Shown here one piece after another: positions 1,273-47,601 of a stretch of 64,000 bases of DNA. Under the pieces are notes generated by a model that searched no databases, was not told the origin of the DNA, and saw only the letters and a list, made by a program, of their open reading frames with translations. How positions within the stretch are numbered: the stretch's first letter is position 1; each line of letters begins with the position of its first letter. The stretch is taken from the sequence record LC739537.1; one strand, given 5' to 3'. Source of the stretch: Escherichia phage phiWec188. Made by a program: the position numbers and the translations under genes.

Positions 1273-1929
1273 ATGACTATTAAACATATCTCTTTTGATG
1301 TATGGAACACACTGATCACAGCAAACCCAAATTACGCGGATATGCGAGCTTGGACTATCGCAAAATACGGAGATATTTCGGAAGTAGAAGCAAGAGCAGC
1401 TTACAAGAAGATCAAAAAGGAACTGGATAATGCGGCACTTCAGGGAACAGCCGAGTGTGCAGCATATGCCTGGGAAAGACTTGGTTACGAACTTGGGATA
1501 ACACCTTTGAAGTCTGCAAAGCTTCGTTTCGAGTGTGAACAGTGGTTCCTTAAGTTTCCACCACATGTGGCTGTGGATTTACCGATGCACTTGCTGTATC
1601 TTTCGGGGCGTTATGATTTGAGCATCAAGAGTAATACCAACTTCATATCAGGGGATATCCTGCGCCGGGCTTGTAAGTTTGATGGTTGGAATTGTTTTGA
1701 GTTCACCCATTTCTCGGATGAAGCTTTACTTTGTAAACCAGATCCGCGATTCTTTGCTCGCACGCTGACGTATTCTCCCATCCCTTTGTTAGGGCACGAA
1801 GTATTGCACGTAGGCGATAGTGAAGAATATGATGGAAAATGTGTTGACTTAGGATTTAACTTCTGTCATATTAAGAACCCTAACGACTTGTTAGATAAAC
1901 TTGCTAAAGGAGAACTTGTTAATGCGTAA
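1273..1929 (+). CDS. HAD-superfamily-like hydrolase (putative)
   Basis: N-terminal FDVWNTL (degenerate HAD motif I) and C-terminal GDSEEYD (motif IV-like); translationally coupled to neighbours. Confidence 0.45.
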   Translation: MTIKHISFDVWNTLITANPNYADMRAWTIAKYGDISEVEARAAYKKIKKELDNAALQGTAECAAYAWERLGYELGITPLKSAKLRFECEQWFLKFPPHVAVDLPMHLLYLSGRYDLSIKSNTNFISGDILRRACKFDGWNCFEFTHFSDEALLCKPDPRFFARTLTYSPIPLLGHEVLHVGDSEEYDGKCVDLGFNFCHIKNPNDLLDKLAKGELVNA

Positions 1930-2749
1930 TCAAACTCAAATCTTTGCTCACAAATTTGATAGTCTGGAAACTGCTCGTTTTGATATTCGTGACTATTCCA
2001 AACTGAAGTTTGGCAGCAACCAGGCGGCACGCCGTATGGGGCAAACATTGGCAGTCTCTTTCTATGACTTGGTAGTCAAGAATATGCCGGAAGAAGAGTT
2101 TGTGGTGATTCCTTCACCTTACAACCATGTGCATAACGCAGCAACCATGATGACCAACCAGTTCATCAATTTCTTGAACCTGTTGCTGCTGAATCACAAA
2201 GGTAGTCGTGCAGTAGAGTTGGATACGATTCACCGTAAGGTAAGCTACATTAACGATTATGGTTTCCTGGACAAAGCAAGCCGTAAGAAACTGATTGATG
2301 GGGACACATTCTATTGCAACAAAGATTTTTGGGGCAACAAGAAGCTGATCTTCATTGATGATGTGAACATCACGGGGACTCATGAAGATAAACTGATTGA
2401 GATCCTGGATGAAAATAAAGTTACGAACGATGTTTACTTCCTGTACTTTGCCAAGTATACTGGTAATCAAGCAGACACAGAAGCTAAACTGAACTTCAAT
2501 TATATTAACACGACAGATGCTTTCGTTAATATGATCAACACCGAACAAGATGCACAGTGTTTGGTTCGTCCTATCAAGTATCTGATGGGGCAAGCACCGG
2601 AAGAGTTTAAAATCATTCTCTCCCGTCTGCCACACCGTTATGTAGAAGCACTGTTCTTTGGGTGTCTTGGGGAAGGTTATGACAAGATCGAGAAGTATTC
2701 TGAAAACTTCGTCTTCCTGAACCGTTACTTTAACCAACATATCCTGTAA
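1922..2749 (+). CDS. phosphoribosyltransferase (PRTase) domain protein
   Basis: PRPP-binding signature KLIFIDDVNITGTHEDKL; start moved to ATG 1922 preceded by AAGGAGAA RBS. Confidence 0.5.
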   Translation: MRNQTQIFAHKFDSLETARFDIRDYSKLKFGSNQAARRMGQTLAVSFYDLVVKNMPEEEFVVIPSPYNHVHNAATMMTNQFINFLNLLLLNHKGSRAVELDTIHRKVSYINDYGFLDKASRKKLIDGDTFYCNKDFWGNKKLIFIDDVNITGTHEDKLIEILDENKVTNDVYFLYFAKYTGNQADTEAKLNFNYINTTDAFVNMINTEQDAQCLVRPIKYLMGQAPEEFKIILSRLPHRYVEALFFGCLGEGYDKIEKYSENFVFLNRYFNQHIL

Positions 2750-2758
2750 GGAGGGAAA

Positions 2759-3232
2759 ATGTTGAAGGTTGTTACTGGTAATCTGATCGATGCAGCTAAG
2801 AGCGGGGAAGTGAACGTTATAGCCCACTGTTGTAACTGCATGTGTAATATGGGTAAAGGGATTGCTCCACAGATTAAAAAAGCATTTCCTTATGCATATG
2901 CAGCCGACTTGGACACAGCAGCAGGTGATCAAAGTAAACTGGGTTCTTTTAGTTTAGGGGTGCCAGAGAATTCCTCTGATCCTTTGGTGTATAACCTGTA
3001 CGGACAGTATCGTTACGGGTACAACGCTAAAGGTCGTCAGTTGGACTACGATGCTCTTTATGACGCACTGATAGCTATGGCTAATGATTTGCTCCTCCAG
3101 GCAAAAGGGCTTAAAATTGGTCTGCCTATGATCGGAGCAGGTTTTGCGGGAGGTAATTGGGCTATCATCGAAGTGATGATTGAAGAAACTTTAGTAAAAA
3201 CAGGTCACGATGTGACTATTTATAAACTTTAA
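2759..3232 (+). CDS. macro domain protein (ADP-ribose binding/processing)
   Basis: VNVIAHCCNCMCNMGKGIAPQI and IGLPMIGAGFAGG match the two conserved macro-domain glycine-rich loops; AAGGAGGG RBS. Confidence 0.65.
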   Translation: MLKVVTGNLIDAAKSGEVNVIAHCCNCMCNMGKGIAPQIKKAFPYAYAADLDTAAGDQSKLGSFSLGVPENSSDPLVYNLYGQYRYGYNAKGRQLDYDALYDALIAMANDLLLQAKGLKIGLPMIGAGFAGGNWAIIEVMIEETLVKTGHDVTIYKL

Positions 3233-3245
3233 GAGGAGAAATAAT

Positions 3246-3467
3246 ATGGGTGTTGTTGCAGGTGTTCTGGCAGTAGTTATCGTGTTTGTTCTGGCTTTCC
3301 TGATCAGTATGATTCCAGCATGGCTTCTGCTGCTGGCTTATAACTACGTTGTTGAAATGATGGGTCACACAGATATCACTGTTCCTATCACCTTCTGGAC
3401 TGTGGTGTGTGTGGCATTTATCATGGCTGTACTACGTGGGATCTTTTCCTCAAGTTCTTCAAAATAA
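3246..3467 (+). CDS. small hydrophobic membrane protein
   Basis: 73 aa, two predicted transmembrane stretches; AGAGGAGAA RBS. Confidence 0.5.
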   Translation: MGVVAGVLAVVIVFVLAFLISMIPAWLLLLAYNYVVEMMGHTDITVPITFWTVVCVAFIMAVLRGIFSSSSSK

Positions 3468-3470
3468 GTG

Positions 3471-3498
3471 TTGACAAAGTTTTAGAATAGAGTAAGAT
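3471..3498 (+). promoter_or_regulatory. sigma70-like promoter candidate (TTGACA -35, TAAGAT -10, 16-nt spacer) upstream of terC
   Basis: consensus -35 hexamer; -10 is 4/6; located in the only sizeable intergenic gap in this region. Confidence 0.4.
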
Positions 3499-3548
3499 GT
3501 ATCACATGAGGCGGGGAGTGGTTCCCCGCAAAGAGAAAGGAGAAAATA

Positions 3549-4523
3549 ATGCAACTTGGTTTCCCCATTATTGATGTAGTGGTGTTGGTAGGTATTCTTG
3601 TTCTGTCCATCGGTATTGACTTTTTCGGGCATCGTGAGAACAAGGAAATCTCTTTCAAATCTGCTGTGGCTTGGTCAATCTTCTGGATTGGTGTGTCTTT
3701 AGCCTACTATGGTTTTGTATACTTCCAGCACGGCGCAGATTTTGCAAACTTGTTCTTGAGCGGGTATGTGTTAGAGAAGTCGCTCTCGGTAGATAACTTG
3801 GTAGTGTTTGTAGCAGTGTTCTCCAGTTTCGGGATTAAGAGCACACACTTACAACACAAAATTCTACTCTGGGGTATTGCAGGTGCGATTGTCTTCCGAG
3901 GTGTGTTTGTAGCAGCAGGGACTTATCTGCTAAGTATTGGATGGTATGTTAATATTTTCTTCGGTATTGTGATTCTTTTTTGTGCGGCGAAGATGTTGTT
4001 TAAACAAGACGATGACGCAGCAGTTGATTACTCTAAACATTGGGCTACCCGCGTCGTTCGTAAACTGTTCCCAGTATCGGATCAGATGGATGGTGAGAAG
4101 TTCTTCACGATTAAGAATGGTGTTCGTGTAGCAACTCCGGCTCTGGTTTGTGTGTTCGTGATGGAAATGGTAGATGTGATCTTTGCAGTAGACTCGGTTC
4201 CGGCTGTAATTGCAGTGACACAAGAACCACTGCTTGTATTCTCTTCGATGCTCTGTGCAATCTTAGGCTTACGTGCTCTGTTCTTTGTTCTTAGTGTGGC
4301 CCTGAAGTATCTGGTTCACCTGGAGAAAGCAGTTATCGCAGTCCTGGTGTTTGTTGGTGTGAAACTGATGTATCACCCGTTTGCAGAAACGCTGCACGCA
4401 AAAGTGAGCTTCCTGCCAGCGCATATTGACCCGACGATCAGCATGTATATCGTGCTTGGTACTCTGGCCCTGGGCGTGATTGCAAGTTTCATCTTCCCTG
4501 AAAAAGAAGAAGCTACCGCTTAA
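3549..4523 (+). CDS. terC: TerC-family integral membrane protein
   Basis: multi-pass hydrophobic protein with the TerC signature EKSLSVDNLVVFVAVF; RBS AAAGGAGAA. Confidence 0.8.
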   Translation: MQLGFPIIDVVVLVGILVLSIGIDFFGHRENKEISFKSAVAWSIFWIGVSLAYYGFVYFQHGADFANLFLSGYVLEKSLSVDNLVVFVAVFSSFGIKSTHLQHKILLWGIAGAIVFRGVFVAAGTYLLSIGWYVNIFFGIVILFCAAKMLFKQDDDAAVDYSKHWATRVVRKLFPVSDQMDGEKFFTIKNGVRVATPALVCVFVMEMVDVIFAVDSVPAVIAVTQEPLLVFSSMLCAILGLRALFFVLSVALKYLVHLEKAVIAVLVFVGVKLMYHPFAETLHAKVSFLPAHIDPTISMYIVLGTLALGVIASFIFPEKEEATA

Positions 4524-4531
4524 TACCAATG

Positions 4532-4556
4532 AACCTCCTTCGGGAGGTTTCTTACT
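4532..4556 (+). terminator. intrinsic terminator (AACCTCC-TTCG-GGAGGTT + T-rich tail)
   Basis: perfect 7-bp stem with UUCG tetraloop immediately after terC stop. Confidence 0.6.
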
Positions 4557-4571
4557 AATATAGGAGGAATT

Positions 4572-4922
4572 ATGTCTGTATATTTTGATGATGTTCAGGA
4601 ATATGTTTGGTGTCTTTCTGGCACAATCCAAGAGGTAGAAGCTGCGATTCAAGAGGTTTTTCCTTATGCTTATGTAGAAGTTAAACAGACACCTCCTATG
4701 GATCTTCCACCTAATGTTGAAGCTTGTTGTGGTTCAGGTGAGGGTACAGTCACCCCAGTTCTGCGTTACGAACTACAAGCAGCAAGTGCAAATGTCGATG
4801 ATATTATTACAGAAATTAAGGTGTATGGTTTCTGGACCTCTCCTTACGCTAAATGGGATAACTCTGACACTTGGGATTTATTCTTCTGGGATAATGAGAC
4901 AGATGATGAGGTATTTCTGTAA
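4572..4922 (+). CDS. hypothetical protein
   Basis: TAGGAGG RBS; acidic, Trp-rich C-terminus; no recognised motif. Confidence 0.5.
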   Translation: MSVYFDDVQEYVWCLSGTIQEVEAAIQEVFPYAYVEVKQTPPMDLPPNVEACCGSGEGTVTPVLRYELQAASANVDDIITEIKVYGFWTSPYAKWDNSDTWDLFFWDNETDDEVFL

Positions 4923-5164
4923 TGAAAGTTGTTTGGGTTGTGTTTGAAAATATTTGTTTTGCAATAGGTTTGTTCGTCATACTTTTTGTGTTGACAAACG
5001 TGATCAATGGTAGTAAAGTATCCCTATACAAAGACGGGGAGCAGATTTACTGCTTCTCTGGAGATTTCAAACACACCTGTGTTAATATGCAGAAAGAAGA
5101 AACTCCACACCAGAAGTCAAGAGAAGATTTTGATTGGTGGTCACTACTTAATAACTTAAGATGA
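4922..5164 (+). CDS. small membrane protein
   Basis: start overlaps upstream stop; N-terminal transmembrane segment. Confidence 0.45.
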   Translation: MKVVWVVFENICFAIGLFVILFVLTNVINGSKVSLYKDGEQIYCFSGDFKHTCVNMQKEETPHQKSREDFDWWSLLNNLR

Positions 5165-5173
5165 GGAGAAAAT

Positions 5174-6040
5174 ATGAAAAATATTCAGCCATTACCTGTA
5201 GTTGGGGATTTGTATTTCTTATCTGGTACGGGTTATTCCCCAGAAGCATTAGAAGTTAACAAGAACGTCTTCCGAGTGAAAGAAATAAGAGAAGAATGTA
5301 ATGAAATTGTTTTCGAAGGTATTACTAACGGAGTTCTTCAGTATGCAGAGATGCGTAGCTGCTTCCAGCAACCTTTCCGCCCGTTGGCAGACGAGTATAA
5401 GATTGCGGTAAATATTGACGATCTTAAAAAATCTCCTTTGTTTGAAGGGTTCTCTGCTTTTATGGCAGATACTTATGTGGATGTAAAGAGATCTAACCTT
5501 TTCGCAGGGGATAATTTCCCTCACTTTGTAGCAGAGAAAAGTCATGGTTTTTCCGATTATGTGGATGCTGTAAACTATGATGTTTCTGAATTGACAGAAG
5601 AGCAGGATTATCTCCTGTTATCTCCTAAAGATTTCATGAGCGTAATGTATGCCGTAGCTGAACAGAAAAAGAAGAAAGAAGAACCTGTAGCCAAAGTTAA
5701 AAAGGTTAAAGGTAAACGTGCCAAAGGTATTCCAGAACGTAAGCGCACCGTAAATAAGGCGACAGTTTTCTTTACCAGCGGTGAGCAATATACGATCAAA
5801 GGTTTTAAAGAAGTGGGTTACACTGCTGGCGGAAACCTTATGTTCTTCACAGTTGCAGAAGAAGGAGAAACTTTTATCCGTTTTTCCAATATGTGGGAAA
5901 TGTCTGTAGAAGATATTAAAAGTGTTGTTGTTTTAGGTGTACATAAGAGTTTCATTATTAACCAAATCTCTGATTTCAGTGCACACTTGACAGCACCAGA
6001 TTTCGAAACTACCACAACAAGCTTTAACTTCAAGGTGTAA
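5174..6040 (+). CDS. hypothetical protein with lysine-rich central linker
   Basis: GAGGAGAA RBS; KKKKEEPVAKVKKVKGKRAKG basic stretch. Confidence 0.5.
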   Translation: MKNIQPLPVVGDLYFLSGTGYSPEALEVNKNVFRVKEIREECNEIVFEGITNGVLQYAEMRSCFQQPFRPLADEYKIAVNIDDLKKSPLFEGFSAFMADTYVDVKRSNLFAGDNFPHFVAEKSHGFSDYVDAVNYDVSELTEEQDYLLLSPKDFMSVMYAVAEQKKKKEEPVAKVKKVKGKRAKGIPERKRTVNKATVFFTSGEQYTIKGFKEVGYTAGGNLMFFTVAEEGETFIRFSNMWEMSVEDIKSVVVLGVHKSFIINQISDFSAHLTAPDFETTTTSFNFKV

Positions 6041-6043
6041 TGC

Positions 6044-6634
6044 ATGAATACCGAGAGAGATTTAAAACTCTTGTGGTGGGAAGTGATGCAGGAGATCAAG
6101 GAGGATTTCCCTGTTTACTACAACATGCTACGTGAAGCTGGATATACGGCTTGCGTTAGGAACAAAGTGAATAACTCTTTCGGTTGGTGCAACTACCGAG
6201 AAAAGATTGTTGTTGTGAATTGGCACTTGCATAAAAACTCCACAAGGGATATGATAGTGGACACAATGAAGCATGAAATTGCTCATGCTATTGATGGTTG
6301 TATGGGTAAGTTCAGTCGTCATGGACCACACTGGCAAAAACTGGCAGCAGAGTTGGGAGCCAATCCTAAAGCTACTTCCAAAGAACCGTTCAATCATGAA
6401 TACAAATATGTTCTTGTTTTGGTAGACAGATTTGCCACAAGATGTGTTAGAGGGTATAATCGTAAACCTAACCGTATGACCCCAGGGAAACAACCACATA
6501 TTTGGTTGAAGAGTGATAAAGAGGGGACAGAAGGAAAAATATGGTTGTATAAATGGGAAGATTGGGTTAAAGTAGCTAAAGAATATGGTGTTTCACCTTA
6601 CACAAGAGAAATAGAAGAGGAGAATGAAGAATGA
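6044..6634 (+). CDS. SprT-like zinc metallopeptidase domain protein
   Basis: HEIAHAI (HExxH) preceded by hydrophobic beta-strand region typical of SprT/Wss1-like fold. Confidence 0.55.
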   Translation: MNTERDLKLLWWEVMQEIKEDFPVYYNMLREAGYTACVRNKVNNSFGWCNYREKIVVVNWHLHKNSTRDMIVDTMKHEIAHAIDGCMGKFSRHGPHWQKLAAELGANPKATSKEPFNHEYKYVLVLVDRFATRCVRGYNRKPNRMTPGKQPHIWLKSDKEGTEGKIWLYKWEDWVKVAKEYGVSPYTREIEEENEE

Positions 6635-7743
6635 CAAGTCCATTTTTGAAAGCGGCAACTGGTGGTCAAAAGAAATCTGAAACGAGTGTACTGACTGCTA
6701 CTACAGACGCAAGCAAGTCCGTGTTCGCTCCGAGTGTCCTGGATGCAAGTCCGGTGTATGCTCCAGCAGCGCCAAAAGCTGTGCCTACCCTGCCAACAAT
6801 GTCTCGTAAAGAGATTGAAGAAGTAGGTGCAGAAGCAGGTTTAACTCTCCGTTCTCTGAATGCTGAAGTGCTGAAGCACCAACGTAGCAATCAAGGTGAC
6901 GAAATGAGTCAACGCCTTACAGCTTTGATTAAACAAGCCAAACAGCTTGATCCTGCCTCCATTAAGCAGAGTAAAGGTGTAGGTAAACTCATCAAGAAAC
7001 TGATGGGGATGAAAGAAGATCTCTTCGGTGAGTTCGATAACGTGAACAACCGTATCGAAGAACTCGTTAAGAATCTTCAAATGGATATCCGTAAAGAAGA
7101 AGATTCTCTGGTGTACCTGGATAAGCTGCACCAGGCGATCGGACAGTACGCCGCAAGCCTGAATCGTGATATGGAATTACTCACAGCAGCTTATGAGCAA
7201 GAACTGGCTACTTTTGAAGCCACACCAGAAGATGACGTAGAAGCCCGTCAACGCGTCCGTGACACGCTTGATCTCTTGGAGATACGTATTGCTGACTTGA
7301 AGGCATTACGCTTGCTGTGCGTGCAAATGGGACCGCGTGTATTGGGTATGCAGAAAGTATCTGCCAGCCTCATGCGTTCTGCTCGTAATATTGTGAACAA
7401 TGTGATTCCTGCTTACTCGGCAAACTTCTCAATGTATATTGAAAGTCTGCGCCAGAAGAAAGCAGCAGAAACACAGAACAACGTTCTGGACGAGTTCAAC
7501 CTGGCAATCAAACTGGGTAGCGATCTTGCCACACAGAATCAGATCGAAGCAGCAGCACTGGCTAACCGCCAAGTACTGGATATTGAAACCCTGCGTCACG
7601 ATCAGGAAAACTTGGTTAAGATGTTGGAAGAAACTAACCGCATCAATACGGAAGCCCGTGCTGCCCGTGTTGATTACATCAATGAAGTTCAATCTCTCGA
7701 AGATGGGATGGTTGACGCTGTTAAGAAGGGGCTTGGTAAATGA
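6631..7743 (+). CDS. alpha-helical protein, possible TelA-like (toxic anion resistance family)
   Basis: 370 aa, predicted helical/coiled-coil, size and context (adjacent to TerC/TerD genes) fit TelA; no diagnostic motif verified. Confidence 0.35.
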   Translation: MTSPFLKAATGGQKKSETSVLTATTDASKSVFAPSVLDASPVYAPAAPKAVPTLPTMSRKEIEEVGAEAGLTLRSLNAEVLKHQRSNQGDEMSQRLTALIKQAKQLDPASIKQSKGVGKLIKKLMGMKEDLFGEFDNVNNRIEELVKNLQMDIRKEEDSLVYLDKLHQAIGQYAASLNRDMELLTAAYEQELATFEATPEDDVEARQRVRDTLDLLEIRIADLKALRLLCVQMGPRVLGMQKVSASLMRSARNIVNNVIPAYSANFSMYIESLRQKKAAETQNNVLDEFNLAIKLGSDLATQNQIEAAALANRQVLDIETLRHDQENLVKMLEETNRINTEARAARVDYINEVQSLEDGMVDAVKKGLGK

Positions 7744-7934
7744 GAATCCGTGTCTATGTAGTTGAAGATTATTTTGGTGTACGCTATGACGAGGAACGTC
7801 GATTCGCACCTATGTGCAGCGTATATTCTCCAAGCGTCTTAGCAAGTTTACGGAAAGATTATTCTTATGAAGCTTGTAATAGTTTTGGTTTTGAGATTCT
7901 TTCAGACGTAGAATTTAATGAGGAGGAAGAATGA
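7740..7934 (+). CDS. hypothetical small protein
   Basis: overlapping start/stop coupling. Confidence 0.35.
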   Translation: MRIRVYVVEDYFGVRYDEERRFAPMCSVYSPSVLASLRKDYSYEACNSFGFEILSDVEFNEEEE

Positions 7935-8104
7935 AAACATTGCGTGTGAACATCGAAACTGCCTGGGCTGGATGTACCGAGGTTGTGGATATCGAAATTG
8001 AAGACGATATGTCTCAAGAAGATATCGAAGATCTTGCAAAAGAAACATTTCAGGATTATTGTAATTACGGGTTCCATATTTTAGGGGAGGAAGAAGATGA
8101 TTAA
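7931..8104 (+). CDS. hypothetical small acidic protein (57 aa, below ORF-track cutoff)
   Basis: GAGGAGGAAGA RBS then ATG 7931; translated by hand. Confidence 0.35.
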   Translation: MKTLRVNIETAWAGCTEVVDIEIEDDMSQEDIEDLAKETFQDYCNYGFHILGEEEDD

Positions 8105-8495
8105 CCACACAAACGTACATTTGAAATTAACGGTAACAGATCCGACTCTTTTCATCAATCTCACAAGCGGTGAAATTTACGAAGTTATCACAGACGAGGA
8201 TGGTTCTTGCTTCCTTAAAGGTTATTATCTCTGTGAATCTGATGAGTTGGTATCTATTATCACCTTGGGAGAATACGAAGAACCAGGTTTCCGTGTAGAG
8301 GTTGTTAAGAATCCTGATATTATCCAATTAACTCGACAAGAACTGATCACCATCATGGAAGATGCTTTTATCGATGGGTGGAAGACTCAAAACTATGATT
8401 GGAGTGGTCCAGAAGACTTCCTGCGTCTTCATAAAGAATATGACGAGTGTAGTGAGACTACTCTTGCCATTGATGATATTAAGGCAGGTCTGTAA
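8097..8495 (+). CDS. hypothetical protein
   Basis: coupled ORF. Confidence 0.45.
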   Translation: MINHTNVHLKLTVTDPTLFINLTSGEIYEVITDEDGSCFLKGYYLCESDELVSIITLGEYEEPGFRVEVVKNPDIIQLTRQELITIMEDAFIDGWKTQNYDWSGPEDFLRLHKEYDECSETTLAIDDIKAGL

Positions 8496-9064
8496 TGGGT
8501 TGCTTTAGTTTTCTGTGTAAGGAGTCGGGCAAAGCTGCCCTCTCCACATCTTTCGATGGTTCTCCTTGCTATCTTTTCCTGTTGAAAGATGGGAAGGTTA
8601 TTGAAGAGATGTATGGCAACTATGATAGTTATGGACGTGTCTTCAGCAGTAAGCAGGATGCTCACGGGAACAGAGAAAGCTTTAAATGGACTATGCCTTG
8701 GAGCGACGTTTGTGATCTTATGTTCTCTGTAAACCGTGGAGACGGTATTGCTATGGTTTTAGCAGAACACTTTACAGGAGAAGTCCCTACAAAGCGATCC
8801 GAGGACGATCCTAATCAAGGTTGGGGAGATGGAGAAGAAGAGGAAGAAGAGGATTATTTCTACAGTACCGAAAATAATATTTTCAAACGTGTTGACAATC
8901 CTTATCATAAAGTGCATAATGTCCTCATTGAAACAGAAGACGACAAAATGGGAATTGAAGAAGATGATCCTCTTGTAACACTGCCTACAAGCGAGTTACA
9001 AAAAATCATCAAAGAAGCTTACGATTTGGGCTTCAAAACTGGTAAAGGAGGAGGGAATGTTTGA
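8495..9064 (+). CDS. hypothetical protein with poly-Glu linker
   Basis: coupled ORF; GDGEEEEEED acidic tract. Confidence 0.45.
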   Translation: MGCFSFLCKESGKAALSTSFDGSPCYLFLLKDGKVIEEMYGNYDSYGRVFSSKQDAHGNRESFKWTMPWSDVCDLMFSVNRGDGIAMVLAEHFTGEVPTKRSEDDPNQGWGDGEEEEEEDYFYSTENNIFKRVDNPYHKVHNVLIETEDDKMGIEEDDPLVTLPTSELQKIIKEAYDLGFKTGKGGGNV

Positions 9065-9329
9065 TTTTAAAATAAAAGATTCAAAACCCCAAGATGTAGC
9101 ACTTCGTTTCGAAGAGTTGGGGATTGGTGAAACTTTCATGTATTATTCAGCATATGAAGAAAATGGTTTGGATACGTTTGCAAACTTAGTATTTATTAAA
9201 AGCGGCGGCGCGACTGCTGTTTGTTTGAATAGTTCATCAAGAGGGAGTGTCCATACCGTATCCCCAGATGTACCGATGGTTGCAGTTCGTTTAGTAGTTA
9301 CCGATATCACACTTACAGAGGAGAAATAA
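9057..9329 (+). CDS. hypothetical protein, paralog A (pairs with 10351-10632)
   Basis: shares KDSKP...SAYEENGLD motif with the 10351-10632 product; each precedes a TerD-type gene. Confidence 0.5.
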   Translation: MFDFKIKDSKPQDVALRFEELGIGETFMYYSAYEENGLDTFANLVFIKSGGATAVCLNSSSRGSVHTVSPDVPMVAVRLVVTDITLTEEK

Positions 9330-9330
9330 T

Positions 9331-10131
9331 ATGTCCAATAAAATTAGCCTGAAGAAACGCCAAGACACCCTGACCATTTCACTGAAGAAAAAGAAAATCG
9401 TCAACGAAGATCAAAAGATCGTTCTGCGTGTTGCAAGCGCACTGGATATCTCCGGTAGTATGTCCAGCTTGTATCGTAACGGCACCGTCAGTGATTTCGT
9501 AGGTAAGCTGCTGCCCTTCGGTATGATCTTTGACGATAATGCACAGATCGATATGTGGGCTTTCAACAATAGCTCTCGTGAAATCACTCCGGCAACTGCT
9601 GATGTGTATGATGATTACGTTGGTAAATGCATTAATGGTCGTGTAACAGTTCAGGGTGGTACAAGCTACGCCCCTGTTATGCAAGATATCTACGATTCTT
9701 ACTTCGGTAGCACTACCAAGTATGAAACTGTAGAAACTCAAGTAACGAAAGAAATCCCTAAGAAAGGTTTCTTCAACCGTCTGTTGGGTAAAACTGAAAC
9801 TGTAGAAGCTGTTGTAGAAAAAACTGTAGCCGTTGCTGTGCCTGGTGTAGACGTTACTCCGGCAGTTGTGTTCTTCCAGACAGATGGTGAGAACGATGAT
9901 CCGAGCCGTGTACTCTCCGTACTGGAAAAGAACAAGGGTAAACCTATCTACTGGTTCATGGTGGGTGTTGGTAGTGCTCGTTTCTCTTTCCTGAAAGATT
10001 TGGCTGAAGCTTACGACAACGTAGCATTCATTGGTCTGAACGATCTTTCCTTGACAGACGAGCAGCTTTACGATAAACTCTTGTCTGAAGAGTTCGGTGA
10101 GTGGGTCGAAAAGGTTGGTGCTAAGAAATGA
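9331..10131 (+). CDS. vWA domain protein with TerD-like N-terminal leader (TerY/TerF-like)
   Basis: N-terminal ISLKK repeats as in TerD; MIDAS-type DISGSM, GGTSYAP, FFQTDGENDD, MVGVG motifs of a von Willebrand A domain. Confidence 0.65.
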   Translation: MSNKISLKKRQDTLTISLKKKKIVNEDQKIVLRVASALDISGSMSSLYRNGTVSDFVGKLLPFGMIFDDNAQIDMWAFNNSSREITPATADVYDDYVGKCINGRVTVQGGTSYAPVMQDIYDSYFGSTTKYETVETQVTKEIPKKGFFNRLLGKTETVEAVVEKTVAVAVPGVDVTPAVVFFQTDGENDDPSRVLSVLEKNKGKPIYWFMVGVGSARFSFLKDLAEAYDNVAFIGLNDLSLTDEQLYDKLLSEEFGEWVEKVGAKK

Positions 10132-11250: not shown

Positions 11251-11270
11251 GATTTAACTGAAATGTTGTT

Positions 11271-11286
11271 GGGGGAGAAATCCCCC
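11271..11286 (+). other. GC hairpin with GNRA loop (GGGGGA-GAAA-TCCCCC) after terD
   Basis: perfect 6-bp stem; no U-run, so possibly RNA processing/attenuation site rather than terminator. Confidence 0.35.
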
Positions 11287-11287
11287 A

Positions 11288-11316
11288 TTGCAAAAACGCC
11301 TCTCATGTGTTATACT
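11288..11316 (+). promoter_or_regulatory. sigma70 promoter candidate with extended -10 (TTGCAA -35, 17-nt spacer, TGtTATACT)
   Basis: TG dinucleotide one base upstream of TATACT; good spacing; upstream of hydrolase gene. Confidence 0.5.
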
Positions 11317-11347
11317 GGTAGTTCATTCACCCAAAAGGAGGCAAAAT

Positions 11348-23473: not shown

Positions 23474-23505
23474 AAGAAAGGAGCCATTTGGCTCCTTTTC
23501 TTATT
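23474..23505. terminator. bidirectional terminator (AAAGGAGCC-ATTT-GGCTCCTTT, flanked by A-run and T-run)
   Basis: sits between the convergent plus-strand early block and minus-strand structural block. Confidence 0.6.
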
Positions 23506-26214: not shown

Positions 26215-28260
26215 TTATCGTGTTACAACAACCATGTCCACGATATCGCCCACACCACAATACGTTAACTGAAGGATTGTTACAGCAGATGCTGCTGTGC
26301 CTACTTCCGTATCGTTAAGTGCTCCATAAGACGCATCCAGCGTCACGGTGTGTCCCGTTGTGTCTTGCAAAAGGTAAATCATTGCAGAGAAAGCTTTCGG
26401 TTTTGTGGTTCCTGTTACTCCAGGCCATGCTCCGATCGTCAATGCGTCTGTAACGTTCACCACGTACATGTTGGTGGCCCCAGAAGGAGTCCAAGCCGTT
26501 CCTGAACTTGCTACATTAGTTGTTTCCAACTCGATGTAACCTGCGCTGACTTTCGTTGGTGCAATCTCTTGGGTAGGATCGCTGCCACTGATTTCGATCC
26601 AATCTCCATCAGAACGTCCATAGGTTAAACCATCTTCAGGAGCTTCAGGAATGCTTGGAAGTGTACCAACTTGCGTCCAAACAGTAGCAGCGGTTTTCTT
26701 AAAGACCGCCCCTGTTGCAGTGTTGAAAGCGTAGTCGTCAATAACACCTTCGGCATTGGTTGGGTTGGTTGCAGCTACAAACCATTGCGCCCCGTCCTTA
26801 CCATCTGTTCCATCAACCCCTGGTGTACCGTTAGTTCCATCTGTTCCGTCAGTACCTGCTGGACCTGGATCACCCTTATCTCCTTTGTCACCTTTATCGC
26901 CTTTTATACTACCCATATCAACAAAAGAGGCGGTGTTCGTATCTTTGTCGTAAGTGTAAATATAAAGGTTACTGGTATCTTCTGTCAGATAAGCGTCACC
27001 ATAGTTGTTGTAGGTTGGTAGTGCAGAACCGCTTGGTACGTGACCTTTAGCAGTAATGGATGTTCCACCAAGACTACCCACGTTCATCCAGTCTGTAGCA
27101 CCTTCTACCCAAACATAAAGGTTGTTGTCGATAATATATGCATCACCAACTTCACCTGTTTCTGGGAGTTGAGATTCATCAGACAGAACGTCTAAGATTT
27201 CCAAGCCAGAGCCTGTTGCACCTACTGGGCCTTGTGGACCTACTTCGCCTTGATTTCCTTGTTCACCTTGAATCCCTTGATCGCCTTTCTCGCCTTTGAT
27301 TGCTGCGATAAAATCTACTTCCGTCCCTGTATTACCGATATCTAACCAAGATTGGTAAGCAGACTTCCCTTCGTCCCCGTCTGTCCCATCCAGCCCGTCA
27401 GTACCTGCTTCACCCTGCGGACCTTGTGGCCCAACAATGTTACCCATGTTAACCCAATCTTCACCGTTGGAAACATAAAGATATCCGGCGATAGAATAAG
27501 CTTGGCTTACGTTATTTGGGTTGGCTGCGGGTAAGTTGGCAGTAGATTCCAGATCTCCACGATAATCAAAACCATTGGCATTAAGACCTGCTGCCCCTTG
27601 TGGACCTTGAGGACCAACGTCTCCTCGATCTCCTTTCAGAGATGCCAGGTAGTCGTAAATTGTACCAGTATTACCTACTGACAACCATACCTGGTACGCT
27701 GACTTTCCTTCTGGACCCAGAGAAGAAATCATTTTCCAAGTTGCGCCGTCCCAAGCGTAAATTGCGTCTCCGACAATCCAACCATCTCCTAAAGCATTAC
27801 CTGTTGTAGGTAATTGGTTGATGTTGTTCAAAGATCCTTTGATATTCAATTGTGCGCCAGTGTCACCTTTAAGAGACGCTAACCACTGTTGTTCTGTTCC
27901 TACGAAACCATTATCCAGAGCAATCTGGTAGGCTGATTTCCCAGCTTCAGGGATTTGAGAAGAGATGTTATTGATCTCTTGCTGCATTATTGCAAAACGG
28001 GCATTAATTACTGCGATATCATCAGCAGTACCTACGCTCTCCCATCCAGTGGAGCTAATGCCGCCTGTGCTTGCCGGAGTAGAGTTCTCAGGAACAACTT
28101 TCGGAAAAGCACCTTTCCATTTATAATAGTTACCGTCATCATCTAAAAGCAGAACTTCACGGGCATTACGTAAAGTAAATCCCGCTGCAAAGCTTCGACG
28201 TTTACGGTACGTAGCTTCGACCATATCTGCAATCGAGCTATTCGGTCTTGTTAAAAGCAT
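26215..28260 (-). CDS. collagen-like repeat tail fibre protein
   Basis: multiple Gly-X-Y tracts (GDKGDKGDKGDPGPAGTDGTDG..., GEKGDQGIQGEQGNQGEVGPQGP...). Confidence 0.6.
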   Translation of the reverse strand: MLLTRPNSSIADMVEATYRKRRSFAAGFTLRNAREVLLLDDDGNYYKWKGAFPKVVPENSTPASTGGISSTGWESVGTADDIAVINARFAIMQQEINNISSQIPEAGKSAYQIALDNGFVGTEQQWLASLKGDTGAQLNIKGSLNNINQLPTTGNALGDGWIVGDAIYAWDGATWKMISSLGPEGKSAYQVWLSVGNTGTIYDYLASLKGDRGDVGPQGPQGAAGLNANGFDYRGDLESTANLPAANPNNVSQAYSIAGYLYVSNGEDWVNMGNIVGPQGPQGEAGTDGLDGTDGDEGKSAYQSWLDIGNTGTEVDFIAAIKGEKGDQGIQGEQGNQGEVGPQGPVGATGSGLEILDVLSDESQLPETGEVGDAYIIDNNLYVWVEGATDWMNVGSLGGTSITAKGHVPSGSALPTYNNYGDAYLTEDTSNLYIYTYDKDTNTASFVDMGSIKGDKGDKGDKGDPGPAGTDGTDGTNGTPGVDGTDGKDGAQWFVAATNPTNAEGVIDDYAFNTATGAVFKKTAATVWTQVGTLPSIPEAPEDGLTYGRSDGDWIEISGSDPTQEIAPTKVSAGYIELETTNVASSGTAWTPSGATNMYVVNVTDALTIGAWPGVTGTTKPKAFSAMIYLLQDTTGHTVTLDASYGALNDTEVGTAASAVTILQLTYCGVGDIVDMVVVTR

Positions 28261-28299
28261 TTATTTACTCCTGATTAATCATTCATTTATCGTTGGGAG

Positions 28300-28324
28300 T
28301 TAAAAAGGGGGACAAGCCCCCTTT
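28300..28324 (-). terminator. intrinsic terminator (GGGGG stem, + U-run on minus strand)
   Basis: immediately after stop of 1016-aa fibre gene. Confidence 0.5.
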
Positions 28325-28327
28325 CAC

Positions 28328-31300
28328 TTATGTCGTCGGAGTATCAATCACCGGAGTAGGACGAATTACCGCAGTGTTACCAACCGCAACGTTGCTTGAG
28401 CTATTAGGAATAGTTGTGATACGTACTCCTGCTGCTGTTGCTGTTTGGATAGGATCTGCAATATCCACCTTCACTGGGTTGGTCCAAGTGTCGTTATCCT
28501 GATAAGGGGCACGAGTGATTACTGTGTCCAAATCAGATCCGCCTGGACCTGCACCTGCGATACGGATACGTGTACCTGCTGACAGTGGGTAATGATATAA
28601 CCAAGAAGCATTTGTCGCTGTACCGTTAGGTGTCAGGTTCTGCACAATCGATTTATCACCAACATTTGTCGCTCGGATACCGAAGGCTGGAATGTCTGGG
28701 ATGTACGCACCACTTGTTGTTACAAGGAAGAACGTGTTGTCTGCTTTAACGATAATATCCCCTTTATCGAATTCTTTCCCTGTTGGGAAGTGCATCCCGT
28801 CAATGTTACGACCTGGGATTGCTTCGATGTAGTAAGATTTACCAGTAGAGCCTACCAGAGCACCAATACCACCTGCGATGTTCGTATACATGTTAGCTTC
28901 AACGTTACAGTTGATACGATGAATATCCGAGTAACGGCAACGACTCCATTGAGGACGTCCAGTTACCATTGTGTTTCCATTCGGGTAACAGTTTACGTTC
29001 ACCATCTCCAGAACTGACTTCTCTCTACGGAAGAATCCATCGTAGAAAGTACCTGGACCAGATTCAGGTTGACCCACACACTCGAAAGAGTTACAAGTGA
29101 TGTTTGCCATTGACAACCAAGAAGCGATACCAAACAATTGCAGAGCGTTACAACGGATGTTATCGAAGCTAACACGGTTCTCAAAACCTGGACCCGCTGA
29201 TACACCAGCGAACACACGACCTGTGGCAGTATGAACGTTACGTACCGAGTAGTTGAAGCAAGGGTTTGATGGACGACCCTGTGCAGGAACAACAGGTTTA
29301 CCGTCTTCACCTAAAACTGCGTTTGTACCCCATTCCAGATAAATCATACGGATTGCACTTGGCAACGTACTGTCGTCTGTAATAGGCTCACCATAAACAC
29401 CGTCGATAGTAAAGTCTTTACAACCGTACATTACAACAGCACCAGTTGCCAGACCTGTACCAACAGAAACTGTTTGGTCAGGATCGCCGTGGATGTTCTG
29501 GATAGAAATGTTACGACCAACTTCTACGTGAACAATCTGGCGGCAACGTTTCGCAAATACGTTACGGATTGTAATGTTCTTACAATACTGCGTATCTGGA
29601 ATGTCATAACCGTATGGACCTTTACCTGCTACACCGATACCGATACCCCAGTTGGAAAGAGGAATTGGTGCGTTCGTTCCGTCGATGTGAGACAAGTAGA
29701 TGTTCTCAATAACACAACCTTCATCGTAATGCTTGTTGATTACGTTCAGTTCGATTGCATCCCCTTGCATATCCATGAACGTCAAGTTACGGAAGACACC
29801 GCGACTAACTGGTTCACCAGTACCTTGTTGAAGGATACCGTAAAGTCCGTTTTTAAACGTACAGTTGTCAATCTCAAAAGTACCTGGAATTGGGTTGCCC
29901 TGGAATACCAAGCTACCAACCTGTCCGGCACGAGGTGCACCATCCCACAAGCAGTCGTAGATACGCACATCGCCACCCCAGTACATTACACGGGAGTTGC
30001 GGAAAGTTGTACCTTCCACTTTACAGTTTTGTAAACGGTAGTCACGTTGTCCACGGAAGACACCTCCAAGAAGGGTGATCCCAGTAATATCAAAAGAACT
30101 TGTAGTGAAGGTCATATCACAACCATAAGCATTCAGGATCTTGCTTTTGGTTGCTGCTGTTGCCACGAGAGCCGCTTGGAAAGCTGCTTCTGGAGTAGCG
30201 TACACTGCACTGTTTGCAAACTCGGACAGGTAAACAACATCAAACAGATCATCAAACTTACCACCGTGTGGAGTTAACAGACCTTCTGTGTTTGTCAGTA
30301 CCCAAGCATTTGGACCTACGCCGCCAGAGGAGGCAAGGGTATCACTTGCAGAGAGAGTTTTTGGCAAAGGGCCAGCCCAACGATAACGACCTGCACCCAT
30401 GCCGATAGTCTGGTGTTTGAGTGTCAGGGTAACTTCATTACCGAAGCTGGTAGGCAGATGTACATATTGCTGACGTTCAACTGCTAATGCTGCCAAGTCA
30501 ACAGTACCAGAAGAGTGGGTAAGAACACCAGTATCTGATAAGCTAACAAATGTCCCAGTTAAACCAGGTGGCAGGGTGTAAGCTATTTGGTTAGTGGCAT
30601 CATACAGGGCTTTCAGACCTACTAAAGCTTGTCCTGATTTTGCGTAAGCCACTTCATAATTCAGGAAACCATATTTACGAGCGATTGTCTGAAGAGGAAC
30701 AGCGTTCATATCTTCGGTCAATGTTTCAGTAGTTGTTTCCAGGTTAGAAATTCGGTTTTCGAGGTTAGGATCGTTTTCTGCGCTTGCTACAATCTTACCG
30801 ATGTAAGCAAACAACTGATTAGGTAATCCAGTTGCAGGATCGTGTCCAAGTGGTTCGGACAAGATGATCTGACTGTTCTCAATACGGAAGGCATCACCCA
30901 CAATCTGGATAACGCCGTTGATAGTCACAATAGCACTATCGAACACATAAGGAGGACTGATTACTTTTTCATAACCTGTTGCAGAGGTATACAGCCAAGG
31001 AATAACTTCACTTGGCAGTTGTTCAGTCTGCATTCCCCACAGCACCCAGTTATTGTCCCCGACTGGAGTCCCTTGCATTGGGATAGGGTTCACCAGTGTT
31101 GCTGCTGGAGCGTAGTAGTATCCACTCAAGATTCCGTTCTGATAGAAACGGAGTTGGTTGAATACTGTTTCATTGGTCCCTTGCGCCCAGGCAATAGGAC
31201 TTTTGAAGTAAAAGTTATCAACCAAAGCCTTACGTAAAGTCGGAATCAATCCTGATTCCGTGTCAATACTTTCTGTTGCGCTTCCGTTGATGATATCGTG

Positions 31301-44799: not shown

Positions 44800-44822
44800 A
44801 TGAAAAAGGGGCCGAAGCCCCT
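44800..44822 (-). terminator. intrinsic terminator (GGGGC-UUCG-GCCCC + U-run)
   Basis: immediately after tape-measure stop. Confidence 0.55.
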
Positions 44823-44827
44823 TTCTT

Positions 44828-47569: not shown

Positions 47570-47595
47570 TAAATAAAAAGGGCATTTCTGCCCTT
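47570..47595 (-). terminator. intrinsic terminator (AGGGCA-GAAA-UGCCCU + U-run)
   Basis: after tail tube stop. Confidence 0.5.
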
Positions 47596-47601
47596 TCGTT
47601 A

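Follow-up and report, generated by a model that had tools for sequence, protein, structure and literature searches.

The leader of the Alx-type terC gene in Escherichia phage phiWec188 as a probable copy of a repeated promoter/stem-loop cassette

Promoter-early stem-loop (PeSL) cassettes have been described in the T4-like phages RB49/phi1, PST and nt-1 (Arbiol et al. 2010, PMC2839356; Comeau et al. 2014, PMC4122927). In these phages the stem-loop lies upstream of the start site and falls into five positional subclasses; in phi1/RB49 it mostly overlaps the -35 and -10 boxes or sits in the space that separates them (PMC2839356). When a PeSL stem-loop was placed between a promoter and lacZ, expression was cut about as much as by rrnB T1, and crossovers were mapped to the inside of the stem-loop (PMC2839356). 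Flanking PeSL copies also give rise to mini-circles.

The segment considered here precedes terC in a 64,000-nucleotide stretch of Escherichia phage phiWec188 (LC739537.1), referred to as the window, which matches the sequence of Escherichia phage phiWec190 (LC739539.1, a Phapecoctavirus) with 100% identity. The identification of the gene by the sequence-only reading is borne out by matches of its product to Pfam PF03741 at 1.7e-39 and to NCBIfam TIGR03718 R_switched_Alx with 320 bits (cutoff 246). That reading had also placed a TTGACA element in the gap before the gene, with a perfect hairpin between promoter and ribosome-binding site (RBS); both are present exactly there, and a TAAGAT -10 hexamer follows TTGACA after 16 nt. 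The features of the locus, in window coordinates, are as follows.

3246..3467, + strand: upstream small hydrophobic ORF of 73 aa; its match to BofA, a family of membrane proteins, is sub-threshold
3468..3547, + strand: whole promoter/stem-loop/RBS cassette (predicted); the phiWec190 genome has 22 copies, of which the 64-kb window contains this one only
3471..3476, + strand: predicted -35 hexamer TTGACA; TTG is invariant, and TTGAC is found in 19 of the 22 paralogous copies, with TTGCA in the remaining three
3493..3498, + strand: predicted -10 hexamer TAAGAT, 16 nt after the -35; the two hexamers together have 10 of 12 consensus matches
3499..3510, + strand: conserved segment GTATCACATGAG (family consensus GTATCACGTAG), kept in the 22-copy alignment and in phage FV3
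3511..3529, + strand: hairpin GCGGGGA-GTGGT-TCCCCGC, 7 bp, perfect, with a 5-nt loop and -14.3 kcal/mol
3537..3542, + strand: Shine-Dalgarno (SD) sequence AAGGAG, separated from the ATG by 6 nt; the stretch around it is A-rich and unstructured
3549..4523, + strand: terC, encoding an Alx-subfamily TerC membrane protein of 324 aa; served by the cassette and annotated as terC in LC739539.1
4532..4549, + strand: terminator-like hairpin AACCTCC-TTCG-GGAGGTT, followed by TCTTACT; closes the terC unit and forms the 3' edge of the exchanged module

The upstream ORF ends with a stop codon at 3465-3467, 3 nt before the -35 hexamer; in ECO340P2 a small ORF is duplicated upstream of terC. An A/T-rich stretch, CAAAATAAGTG, precedes TTGACA, and the paralogous copies are arranged alike. 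From the usual spacing of 6-8 nt after a -10 hexamer, transcription is predicted to start at about 3504-3506, within the conserved segment 3499..3510. The gap measures 81 nt, and the predicted transcribed leader of about 45 nt contains one 7-bp hairpin, which ends 19 nt before the AUG at 3549. Promoter-like hexamer pairs taken alone occur at chance level, with 20 seen versus 19.6 expected in 10 kb; GC-rich perfect hairpins (at least 7 bp, at least 6 GC pairs) number two in the 64-kb window versus 0.25 expected from dinucleotide shuffles, and the chance expectation of such a hairpin in an 81-nt gap is roughly 3e-4. The gap had been described as the only sizeable one in the operon. It is indeed the largest within about 7 kb on either side, but a gap of 97 nt, with a hairpin and a promoter of its own, is left at 11251-11347 in the deposited annotation, and further gaps of 41-48 nt lie at 424-464 and 4524-4571. 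The proposal of a structured leader holds, in that a conserved promoter-like element is followed by a conserved hairpin and then by the RBS; it is very probable that terC has a structured 5' leader of its own.

A genome-wide scan together with nhmmer finds 22 copies of this arrangement in the phiWec190 genome. All but the terC copy lie on one strand at 122.5-133.3 kb of the record, where the 21 precede unrelated small hypothetical ORFs (about 40-130 aa). The segment 3468..3547 gives an nhmmer match with E = 1.2e-11, can be aligned over its full length with the 21 early-region copies and scores 68.6 bits against the covariance model R1 (E of about 1e-13, model positions 1-79 of 79), in a family that ranges from 45 to 84 bits. 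Alignment with MAFFT indicates homology across the whole unit, promoter spacer included, and the commonest -10 hexamer and spacer in the family are the TAAGAT and the 16 nt found before terC. The distance from the -10 hexamer to the hairpin is 7-12 nt and that from the hairpin to the ATG 17-24 nt, ranges that exclude copies for which the measurement fell on an inner helix. Two copies in Vequintavirus FV3, which were left out of the building of R1, score 83 and 73 bits and stand before two unrelated genes, and the model returns a single weak match from 75 unrelated viral loci (about 0.6 Mb), control loci which came from an IMG/VR scan with a cassette 15-mer and are mostly chance matches to it. 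In total the cassette is found at 633 places in 150 phage records. It occurs in Phapecoctavirus, Justusliebigvirus and Vequintavirus FV3, and the phages that carry it belong to the Stephanstirmvirinae and the Vequintavirinae. TTGAC is retained in every terC orthologue that carries the module; the module is absent before terC in phages that carry TerC but are more distantly related, namely Cronobacter A24, Proteus P59, Aeromonas APT65, Klebsiella FBKp34 and the IMG/VR locus L006, and in Vibrio phage BUCT194 an unrelated hairpin lies between terB and terC. Judged by these alignments, the segment 3468-3547 is in all likelihood one copy of a repeated expression cassette of about 80 nt that belongs to phAPEC8-like and rV5-like phages.

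Of the systems described so far PeSL is the closest in kind, and the cassette is PeSL-like, a new member by architecture that stands outside the T4 sequence family. Both are repeated intergenic units, of about 80-100 nt in PeSL, in which an A/T-rich stretch and a consensus sigma70-type early promoter (a predicted one here) are combined with a stable stem-loop of G-then-C type, followed by the SD sequence and start codon of the next gene; both occur in many copies, concentrated among small ORFan genes. PeSL has been tied to modular gene exchange, of which the present family offers one clear case, the swap of terC precisely downstream of the cassette. The PeSL lineage is, however, that of T4-like myoviruses, whereas the cassette belongs to the Stephanstirmvirinae and Vequintavirinae and is likened to PeSL by architecture, not by sequence. 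Furthermore, its stem-loop is fixed 7-12 nt after the -10 hexamer, at or after the predicted start, and would be transcribed from its own promoter; it also differs in having no U-tract. Given the other host phages and the position of the stem-loop at or after the predicted start, the cassette is filed as PeSL-like, apart from the T4 family of sequences.

Comparison of the terC orthologues identifies four stem types, GCGGGGA/TCCCCGC, GCGGAGGA/TCCTCCGC, AAGGGAGAG/CTCTCCCTT and AAGAGGGAG/CTCCCTCTT, all of which are fully paired and occupy the same place between the -10 hexamer and the SD sequence. The retention of this position with four different, fully compensated stems indicates that the hairpin is under selection. 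Substitutions among orthologues hit the spacer and the loop, leaving both hexamers and the stem untouched. In the family alignment double changes are seen in 7 of 8 pairs and 76.5% of the cells are paired, against 46-54% when the partners are slid; since the register differs among copies, this fixed-register count on the covariance-model alignment understates the pairing, which per-copy folds show more clearly. Every paralogous copy has the hairpin at the same model position, with energies that span -8 to -17 kcal/mol and mostly fall between -12 and -17. The terC hairpin itself, folded as the sense strand, has a z of -3.7, with one of 200 shuffles folding as well, and it persists in a read-through context of 241 nt.

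Morons, as described by Hendrix and co-workers, are reportedly independent promoter-gene-terminator units inserted in phage operons; they were described mainly from temperate phages, with expression in the prophage state. Like them, terC is a host-like accessory gene with a promoter cassette of its own on one side and a terminator-like hairpin on the other, set inside a long co-directional gene array and exchanged as a unit; it differs in belonging to a virulent myovirus and in having a promoter of the phage's own early type. Identity to phage ASO2A is 96-100% over 3284-3548 and drops to 60-70% from the terC ATG on, while identity to Justusliebigvirus is about 40% upstream, mostly 76-92% across terC (mean about 85%) and falls after 4550. 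In this mosaic the exchanged stretch is the terC coding sequence, bounded exactly by the cassette on one side and the downstream hairpin on the other. The palindrome at 4532-4549 was listed by a terminator scan as a minus-strand site, and the ASO2A record has a rho-independent terminator at the orthologous site.

The explanation favoured here, and held to be probable as a whole, is that the terC segment is a copy of a constitutive promoter/hairpin cassette whose 5'-proximal stem-loop protects or insulates. The proposed order is an A-rich stretch, TTGACA, 16-17 nt, a -10 hexamer of the TAAGAT type, GTATCACRTAG, a GC-rich hairpin, an A-rich RBS and the ATG. Within a long operon, such a cassette would provide terC with a host-sigma70 promoter of its own; together with the hairpin at 4532-4549 it would make the gene self-contained, exchangeable and moron-like. 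In transcripts that start at about 3504-3506 the terC hairpin would lie 5-7 nt from the 5' end; for canonical copies the corresponding distance would be 0-4 nt. The hairpin would act as a constitutive structural element that senses nothing: as a 5'-proximal stem-loop it may hinder 5'-end-dependent decay by RppH and RNase E, and it may insulate the open RBS by shielding it from what lies upstream, in the cassette's own transcripts as well as in those that read through. The repeated cassette would, in addition, double as a recombination boundary. Promoter activity, early timing, the start site and a stabilising or insulating role are predictions drawn from the arrangement. A literature search, partly too broad to inform, found no transcriptomes or start-site maps for phAPEC8-, phi92- and rV5-like phages, and no data on transcription start, RNA half-life or reporter expression for any cassette copy.

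The T7 gene 10 leader hairpin is one precedent for a 5'-terminal stem-loop. Others come from the ompA and papA studies of Belasco and co-workers, cited in a review (PMC3997798), in which 5'-terminal stem-loops reportedly stabilise E. coli mRNAs. The cassette resembles all three in placing a GC-rich hairpin near the predicted 5' end, followed by an open A-rich RBS, and several canonical copies, those with GTAG...CAC, can begin the helix at the predicted +1. The terC copy would depart from the ompA and papA type, in which the hairpin lies about 0-4 nt from the 5' end, since 5-7 unpaired nt are predicted before its hairpin, and this tail is a point against 5' protection; the 5' stabiliser in the classical ompA work is said to tolerate a shorter unpaired tail than that. 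The hairpin is also found without a promoter, in hairpin-plus-RBS units between early genes at 130159-130206 and 132114-132164 of the record, and its role therefore cannot be solely 5'-end-dependent. By analogy with these leaders, a specific part in 5' protection is put forward tentatively, at somewhat short of an even chance. A site for RNase III was also considered and rejected: the enzyme needs roughly two helical turns, for which a stem of 7-9 bp is far too short.

Among the alternatives, the one that survives best, unlikely as it is, takes the hairpin as a terminator or attenuator that limits read-through into terC and between early genes, as has been proposed for PeSL. The ASO2A record labels the orthologous hairpin 'rho-independent terminator predicted by WebGeSTer', a PeSL stem-loop has measured terminator-like activity (PMC2839356), hairpin-only copies lie between early genes, and the hairpin still forms in the read-through transcript. 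In GC content, in its 7 bp and in its intergenic position it is indeed like an intrinsic terminator; unlike one, it lies downstream of a promoter, so that an efficient terminator would stop the cassette's own transcripts. Moreover, the U-tract is missing after the hairpin in all 22 copies and in the orthologues, and the real terminators of the phage have the form AAAGGGG-loop-CCCCTTT followed by a T-rich run. At terC, AAAGAGAAAGG follows the hairpin on the plus strand and CTCATGTGAT on the minus strand, so that a U-tract is absent on both, and an intrinsic terminator was rejected on this ground; nor did the terminator scan report the hairpin at 3511-3529.

It is also conceivable, at a clearly lower probability, that the inverted repeat acts as DNA, either as an operator at about +6 to +25 through which a phage or host protein shuts off early promoters or as a cruciform or hairpin that promotes recombination between cassettes. 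The palindromic repeat occupies a frequent operator position and its 5' half, GGCGG, is kept in most copies. Nor does a strand test favour sense RNA overall: the summed energies of the copies do lean towards the sense strand, with -443 kcal/mol against -406 kcal/mol for the antisense strand, but the subfamily GGCGGCGGA/TCCACCGCC folds better as antisense, and internal mismatches in 27 unique hairpins comprise nine A.C versus one G.T. As regards recombination, crossovers in PeSL fall within the stem-loop (PMC2839356) and the mosaic boundary of terC adjoins the cassette; the breakpoint, however, lies at the RBS/ATG, outside the hairpin, and a recombination role is compatible with the favoured cassette explanation rather than an alternative to it. 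Against an operator, the stem sequence is fully changed among relatives while pairing is kept, and the loop varies from 3 to 6 nt, which is in keeping with a structure and not with a sequence-specific dimeric operator.

About as improbable is a third alternative, in which GTATCACRTAG and the hairpin form a shared RNA tag on early transcripts that is read by a trans-acting factor. The tag could resemble the nut/boxB site used by lambda N, it could be a translational operator, or it could mark phage mRNAs so that they escape the decay induced by infection. In the nut/boxB system a boxA-like motif and a hairpin are bound by an N-like protein and downstream terminators are overridden, and the cassette likewise shows a promoter-proximal conserved motif with a hairpin. 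One leader stands on at least 22 transcription units, the conserved single-stranded motif adjoins the hairpin, and AUGG/AUAG loops recur in two phage subfamilies. Neither loop nor stem is strictly conserved, however, the loop being GUGGU before terC and UUG in Justusliebigvirus, and the downstream hairpin at 4532-4549, a putative terminator, has a weak T-run. That the invariant leader start (GUAUCACGUAG and the GC hairpin) is a common tag read by a phage or host factor, with terC recruited into the regulon through acquisition of the cassette, is given little chance; were it true, the factor might bring about antitermination of the nut/boxB kind, co-ordinated translational control, or a self/non-self sparing of phage early mRNAs during the degradation of host mRNAs.

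There remains the suggestion of the sequence-only reading that terC is controlled by a leader responsive to Mn or pH. Its premise, that TerC genes are found under responsive leaders, is reasonable, given that the protein belongs to the Alx subfamily and that the NCBIfam name 'R_switched_Alx' marks a riboswitch association, but the phage copy has a generic cassette instead. In the yybP-ykoY Mn2+ riboswitch and the alx PRE leader (RF00080), an aptamer of roughly 100 nt or more is joined to a platform that hides the SD sequence or forms a terminator. The terC leader likewise precedes an Alx/TerC-family gene, yet it has roughly a third of that length, one hairpin in place of a multi-helix aptamer, neither a terminator platform nor significant SD sequestration, and no covariance-model match; at about 45 nt with one 7-bp hairpin, it excludes a yybP-ykoY aptamer by size. 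The proposed covariance-model check found no match to yybP-ykoY or other leader families (Rfam, E up to 10, positions 3000-4000), where the sole match of the permissive cmscan is unrelated, sub-threshold and located at 3164-3248; Rfam at the gathering threshold returns tRNAs only for the whole window, and a search of the canonical early-region copies returns nothing relevant. In the short-leader fold the SD sequence is unpaired. Sequestration of the SD, or a thermometer, was considered and rejected, as its pairing in longer folds, with terC codons 5-7, is weak: the gain is about 3.6 kcal/mol, and shuffles do equally well. An anti-anti-SD switch, suggested by the SD-like arms GGGGA and GGAGG and the anti-SD-like arms UCCCC and CCUCC, was dropped for two reasons: first, the alternative pairings are of about 5 bp with loops of 9-10 nt; second, the canonical copies (GGCGGCA/UGCCGCC) have no SD- or anti-SD-like arms. 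Finally, RF00080 is associated with metal-homeostasis genes, whereas aligned leaders of identical architecture stand before 21 unrelated small hypothetical ORFs and two FV3 genes. Since it is one of at least 22 copies that mostly precede unrelated small genes, the cassette is not a metal- or pH-sensing terC leader: a non-sensing role is almost certain, and a terC-specific responsive leader, riboswitch-like or PRE-like, can be dismissed as highly implausible.

The presence of a hairpin before an Alx/TerC gene is, in this instance, no evidence for a Mn or pH riboswitch, which corrects a tempting annotation. It would appear that the bacterial sensor has been replaced by the phage's constitutive early-type cassette, and terC is therefore probably made on the phage schedule and not in response to metal. 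Composite promoter/stem-loop cassettes, known from T4-like phages, extend to two other large coliphage groups, in which the hairpin has a fixed position and would be transcribed; terC is a clean case of gene exchange exactly at the cassette. If its activity is confirmed, the unit of about 80 nt could serve as an expression part. Public labels of the cassette conflict: it is called a 'promoter' on the basis of MEME, a 'promoter' on the basis of PHIRE, where the label actually marks the hairpin, and a 'terminator' on the basis of WebGeSTer, and in the GenBank record of phAPEC8 the identical terC site is entered as 'putative host dependent promoter determined with MEME'. The annotation of phiWec190 starts four coding sequences at an ATG within the hairpin loop.

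The window matches phiWec190 (LC739539.1; Phapecoctavirus, Stephanstirmvirinae) at 100% identity, its + strand being the - strand of that record, and the gene starting at 3549 is, by its domain matches, securely identified as terC (Pfam TerC, 1.7e-39; NCBIfam TIGR03718 'R_switched_Alx', 320 bits against a cutoff of 246). The promoter element, perfect hairpin and RBS are all present where the sequence-only reading had placed them.

Elements of the terC leader (window coordinates)
3246-3467, + strand: small hydrophobic ORF of 73 aa, directly upstream of the terC gap
Between 3467 and the terC ATG at 3549, + strand: intergenic gap of 81 nt, holding putative promoter, hairpin and RBS
3471-3476, + strand: -35 element TTGACA, from sequence
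3493-3498, + strand: -10 element TAAGAT, with a 16-nt spacer from the -35
3499-3510, + strand: segment GTATCACATGAG, between -10 and hairpin
3511-3529, + strand: perfect hairpin GCGGGGA-GTGGT-TCCCCGC, from sequence and fold
3537-3542, + strand: Shine-Dalgarno (SD) sequence AAGGAG inside an A-rich stretch, from sequence
3549, + strand: ATG, start of terC

Paired promoter-like hexamers by themselves occur at chance frequency in the DNA of the window, unlike the terC hairpin (-14.3 kcal/mol, z = -3.7 against shuffles), whose frequency is above chance: the window has two perfect hairpins with stems of 7 bp or more that include 6 or more GC pairs, where shuffled sequence is expected to give 0.25.

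The first clue to the nature of this leader was a BLAST match to the promoter segment in Vequintavirus FV3, where two copies of the same cassette, a unit of about 80 nt (3468-3547 at terC), stand before unrelated small genes. In the whole phiWec190 genome, reassembled from the window and two further stretches, a pattern scan and nhmmer identified 22 copies; 21 lie on one strand at 122.5-133.3 kb of the record (the early region), each within a gap of 50-100 nt preceding a small hypothetical ORF, and the remaining one is the terC copy. All 22 can be aligned end to end, promoter spacer included, with the consensus TTGACA, N16-17, TAAGAT, GTATCACGTAG, GGCGGCA-ATGG-TGCCGCC, ACAAC, AGAAGAGAGA, ATG. 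A covariance model trained on these copies scores the terC copy at 68.6 bits, mid-range for the family (45-84), and the two FV3 copies, which were outside the training set, at 83 and 73 bits; it picks up additional copies in phAPEC8 and in contigs from IMG/VR that are 137-153 kb long, and yields a single weak match across unrelated viral sequence totalling about 0.6 Mb. BLAST locates the cassette at 633 sites across 150 phage records, from Phapecoctavirus, Justusliebigvirus (phi92 included) and Vequintavirinae. Its position before unrelated ORFs decides how the terC leader is to be interpreted: the unit is not specific to terC, and the leader is very probably an ordinary copy of the phage's generic repeated promoter/stem-loop/RBS cassette. 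Directly past the cassette-rich early region, about 1.6 kb (record 134571-136151; 27672-29252 of the phiWec190 stretch L030) are without an annotated gene, A-rich and contain numerous CAACAA-type short repeats.

The hairpin is found at the same model position in every paralogous copy (-8 to -17 kcal/mol, mostly -12 to -17), and the family alignment has double-sided changes at 7 of 8 stem pairs, with paired cells at 76.5%, an underestimate given the fixed register of the count, against 46-54% with the partners slid. Among terC leaders taken from 22 related loci, the module carriers (Phapecoctavirus, Justusliebigvirus and Klebsiella-infecting relatives) have one common layout throughout: a TTGAC -35 and a TAnnnT -10 separated by 16 nt, with the hairpin 7-12 nt past the -10 and 7-9 nt ahead of the SD. 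The stems vary by group, with full compensation in every case (GCGGGGA/TCCCCGC, GCGGAGGA/TCCTCCGC, AAGGGAGAG/CTCTCCCTT and AAGAGGGAG/CTCCCTCTT); the last two are two compensated double changes apart, and Klebsiella phage ZCKP1 carries a longer form of the first that includes one G.U pair. Substitutions between orthologues fall in the spacer and loop; both promoter hexamers and the stem are untouched. Judged from these comparisons, the terC leader hairpin is under selection and functional.

From the annotation of relatives, the cassette at terC is already known as a predicted promoter. In phAPEC8 (JX561091) the identical terC-upstream sequence, and also one early-region copy, is labelled 'putative host dependent promoter determined with MEME', and all three 20-nt features labelled 'putative promoter determined with PHIRE' (1256-1275, 1895-1914 and 2784-2803 of the phAPEC8 stretch L034) fall within cassette matches, the first being the hairpin GTAGGGCGGCAATGGTGCCG itself and not the promoter hexamers. 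The ASO2A (Phapecoctavirus) record has a promoter annotated at the terC site and, on the hairpin behind it, a 'rho-independent terminator predicted by WebGeSTer'. Since all these labels fall on the cassette, one element bears three different labels across public records; a literature search for experimental transcript data on cassette-carrying phages found none. Furthermore, four deposited phiWec190 CDSs start at an ATG within the hairpin loop GGCGGCA-ATGG-TGCCGCC (record 122867, 126541, 128314 and 132843; L030 15968, 19642, 21415 and 25944). Given that in each an in-frame ATG follows 30-36 nt further down, behind the cassette SD, these starts are probably annotated 10-12 codons too far upstream.

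The closest described counterparts are the promoter-early stem-loop cassettes (PeSLs), repeated in intergenic regions of the T4-like phages RB49 and phi1 and each combining a consensus sigma70 early promoter and an A/T-rich stretch with a stable stem-loop (G-then-C) and with the SD and ATG of the gene that follows (Arbiol et al., PMC2839356). PeSLs cluster among ORFans and serve as sites of recombination at which modules are shuffled, and one PeSL stem-loop behaved as a strong terminator in a reporter assay (PMC2839356). The terC-type cassette matches them in architecture, that is in composition, copy number and location, with terC as one clear case of a link to exchange, and differs in belonging to other phage lineages and in having no U-tract. 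Its stem-loop also keeps one fixed position, at or past the predicted start, and would therefore be transcribed by the cassette's own promoter, whereas the phi1 stem-loop lies mostly within or over the promoter (PMC2839356). Because of these shared properties and differences, the cassette is classed as PeSL-like, its activities being predicted; it represents a PeSL-like family outside T4-like phages with the hairpin in a fixed transcribed position.

Host RNA polymerase with sigma70 would initiate at about 3504-3506, at a pyrimidine-purine step 6-8 nt past the -10, giving a terC RNA in which 5-7 free 5' nucleotides lead into the hairpin, with an open, A-rich RBS of 19 nt behind it; in several of the canonical early-region copies (GUAG...CAC) the helix may start at the predicted first nucleotide. 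This layout is comparable to that of the T7 gene 10 leader. It is also similar to that of the 5'-terminal stem-loops of E. coli ompA and papA mRNAs, which guard against 5'-end-dependent decay (studies cited in the review PMC3997798). The hairpin still folds in the context of a read-through transcript, where, because it ends just beyond the ribosome footprint, it could also hold the RBS clear of upstream pairing. A role in 5' protection or insulation is thus proposed tentatively, at somewhat less than an even chance. The rather long predicted 5' tail of the terC copy is a weak point for this mechanism. A further one is the presence between early genes of hairpin-plus-RBS units without a promoter (record 130159-130206 and 132114-132164; L030 23260-23307 and 25215-25265), which share stems with some full cassettes, e.g. 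GGGGCG-ACAAG-CGCCCC, and whose existence suggests that the hairpin has a role independent of a 5'-end position. The evidence on the strand of the structure is also mixed: summed folding energies are lower for the sense strand (-443 against -406 kcal/mol), one stem subfamily folds better as antisense, and internal mismatches in 27 unique hairpins are A.C nine times and G.T once.

An attenuator or terminator would be consistent with the PeSL reporter result (PMC2839356) and the ASO2A annotation; this is unlikely for two reasons: a U-tract is absent after the terC hairpin on both strands, and the hairpin is downstream of the cassette's own promoter. Action at the DNA level, as an operator or recombination hairpin, is improbable given that the stem sequence has wholly turned over with pairing kept, and a shared RNA tag for a trans-acting factor is about as improbable. 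A terC-specific sensor leader has next to no likelihood. The premise of the sequence-only reading holds in that the phage TerC belongs to the Alx subfamily, which NCBI names 'R_switched', but the Mn- or pH-responsive leader proposed from it gives way to the generic phage cassette. Rfam models matched neither the terC leader (zero families, E up to 10) nor the canonical early-region copies, and in the whole window they found ten tRNAs and nothing else (clustered at 60839-63288, minus strand, 50-74 bits). From the predicted start, the leader would be about 45 nt long and hold one hairpin; the short-leader fold leaves its SD unpaired, and at most the SD pairs weakly with codons 5-7 of terC (about 3.6 kcal/mol, shuffles doing as well). 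The cassette almost certainly senses nothing.

Flanking terC are the cassette (5') and a terminator-like hairpin at 4532-4549 (an annotated terminator in ASO2A). In sliding comparisons, identity to ASO2A is 96-100% over 3284-3548 (upstream ORF and leader) and 60-70% from the terC ATG on; identity to a Justusliebigvirus contig is about 40% upstream, mostly 76-92% (mean about 85%) over terC and falls past about 4550. Given these mosaic breaks, at the terC ATG and just past the 4532-4549 hairpin, and the protein identities (94% to Justusliebigvirus TerC, 72% to most Phapecoctavirus TerC), the terC coding sequence has been swapped between its two bracketing elements, as the PeSL shuffling model would predict, which makes terC a clean example of modular exchange. 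The surrounding array (1273-10131) is a tellurite-resistance-type gene set, mostly 'hypothetical protein' in the record: HAD-like hydrolase (a sub-threshold match), ComF-like PRTase (PF15610), Macro domain, TerC, SprT-like, TelA (PF05816) and vWA-TerF-like (PF10138).

A second regulatory gap in the gene array that holds terC, at 11270-11318, has the reverse order, with a hairpin (TGGGGGA-GAAA-TCCCCCA) followed immediately by TTGCAA, 17 nt and TATACT with a TGT extended -10. At 429-447, a terminator-like hairpin (AGGGCGC-TCTCT-GCGCCCT) with a T-run lies 17 nt ahead of an SD and ATG (465) with no promoter, and may be an attenuator within the operon. Five hairpins that follow the pattern AAAGG..-loop-..CCTTT and are flanked by A and T runs (23477-23498, 28304-28324, 44805-44824, 47577-47596 and 60335-60355), at gene ends or between convergent genes and quite unlike the terC leader hairpin, are by their sequence the phage's recognisable terminators, partly bidirectional.

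Among relatives, the region upstream of terC is variable: the 73-aa ORF is doubled in ECO340P2 (L010 267-733), and in FBKp34 (L024 505-692) terC follows another gene and the cassette is absent. In the unrelated Schitoviridae Vibrio phage BUCT194 a hairpin, ATAGGGGA-GTAA-TCCCCTAT, lies between terB and terC (L028 about 591-622), a few nucleotides ahead of the SD and likewise without a U-tract. Records named 'Campylobacter phage' (A145, B15, C3, A140), 'Pseudomonas phage PsgM04F' and 'Acinetobacter phage' are close kin of this subfamily's coliphages (PsgM04F 91.6% over a 1.9-kb query; A145 TerC 94% identical), and their host labels may be wrong.
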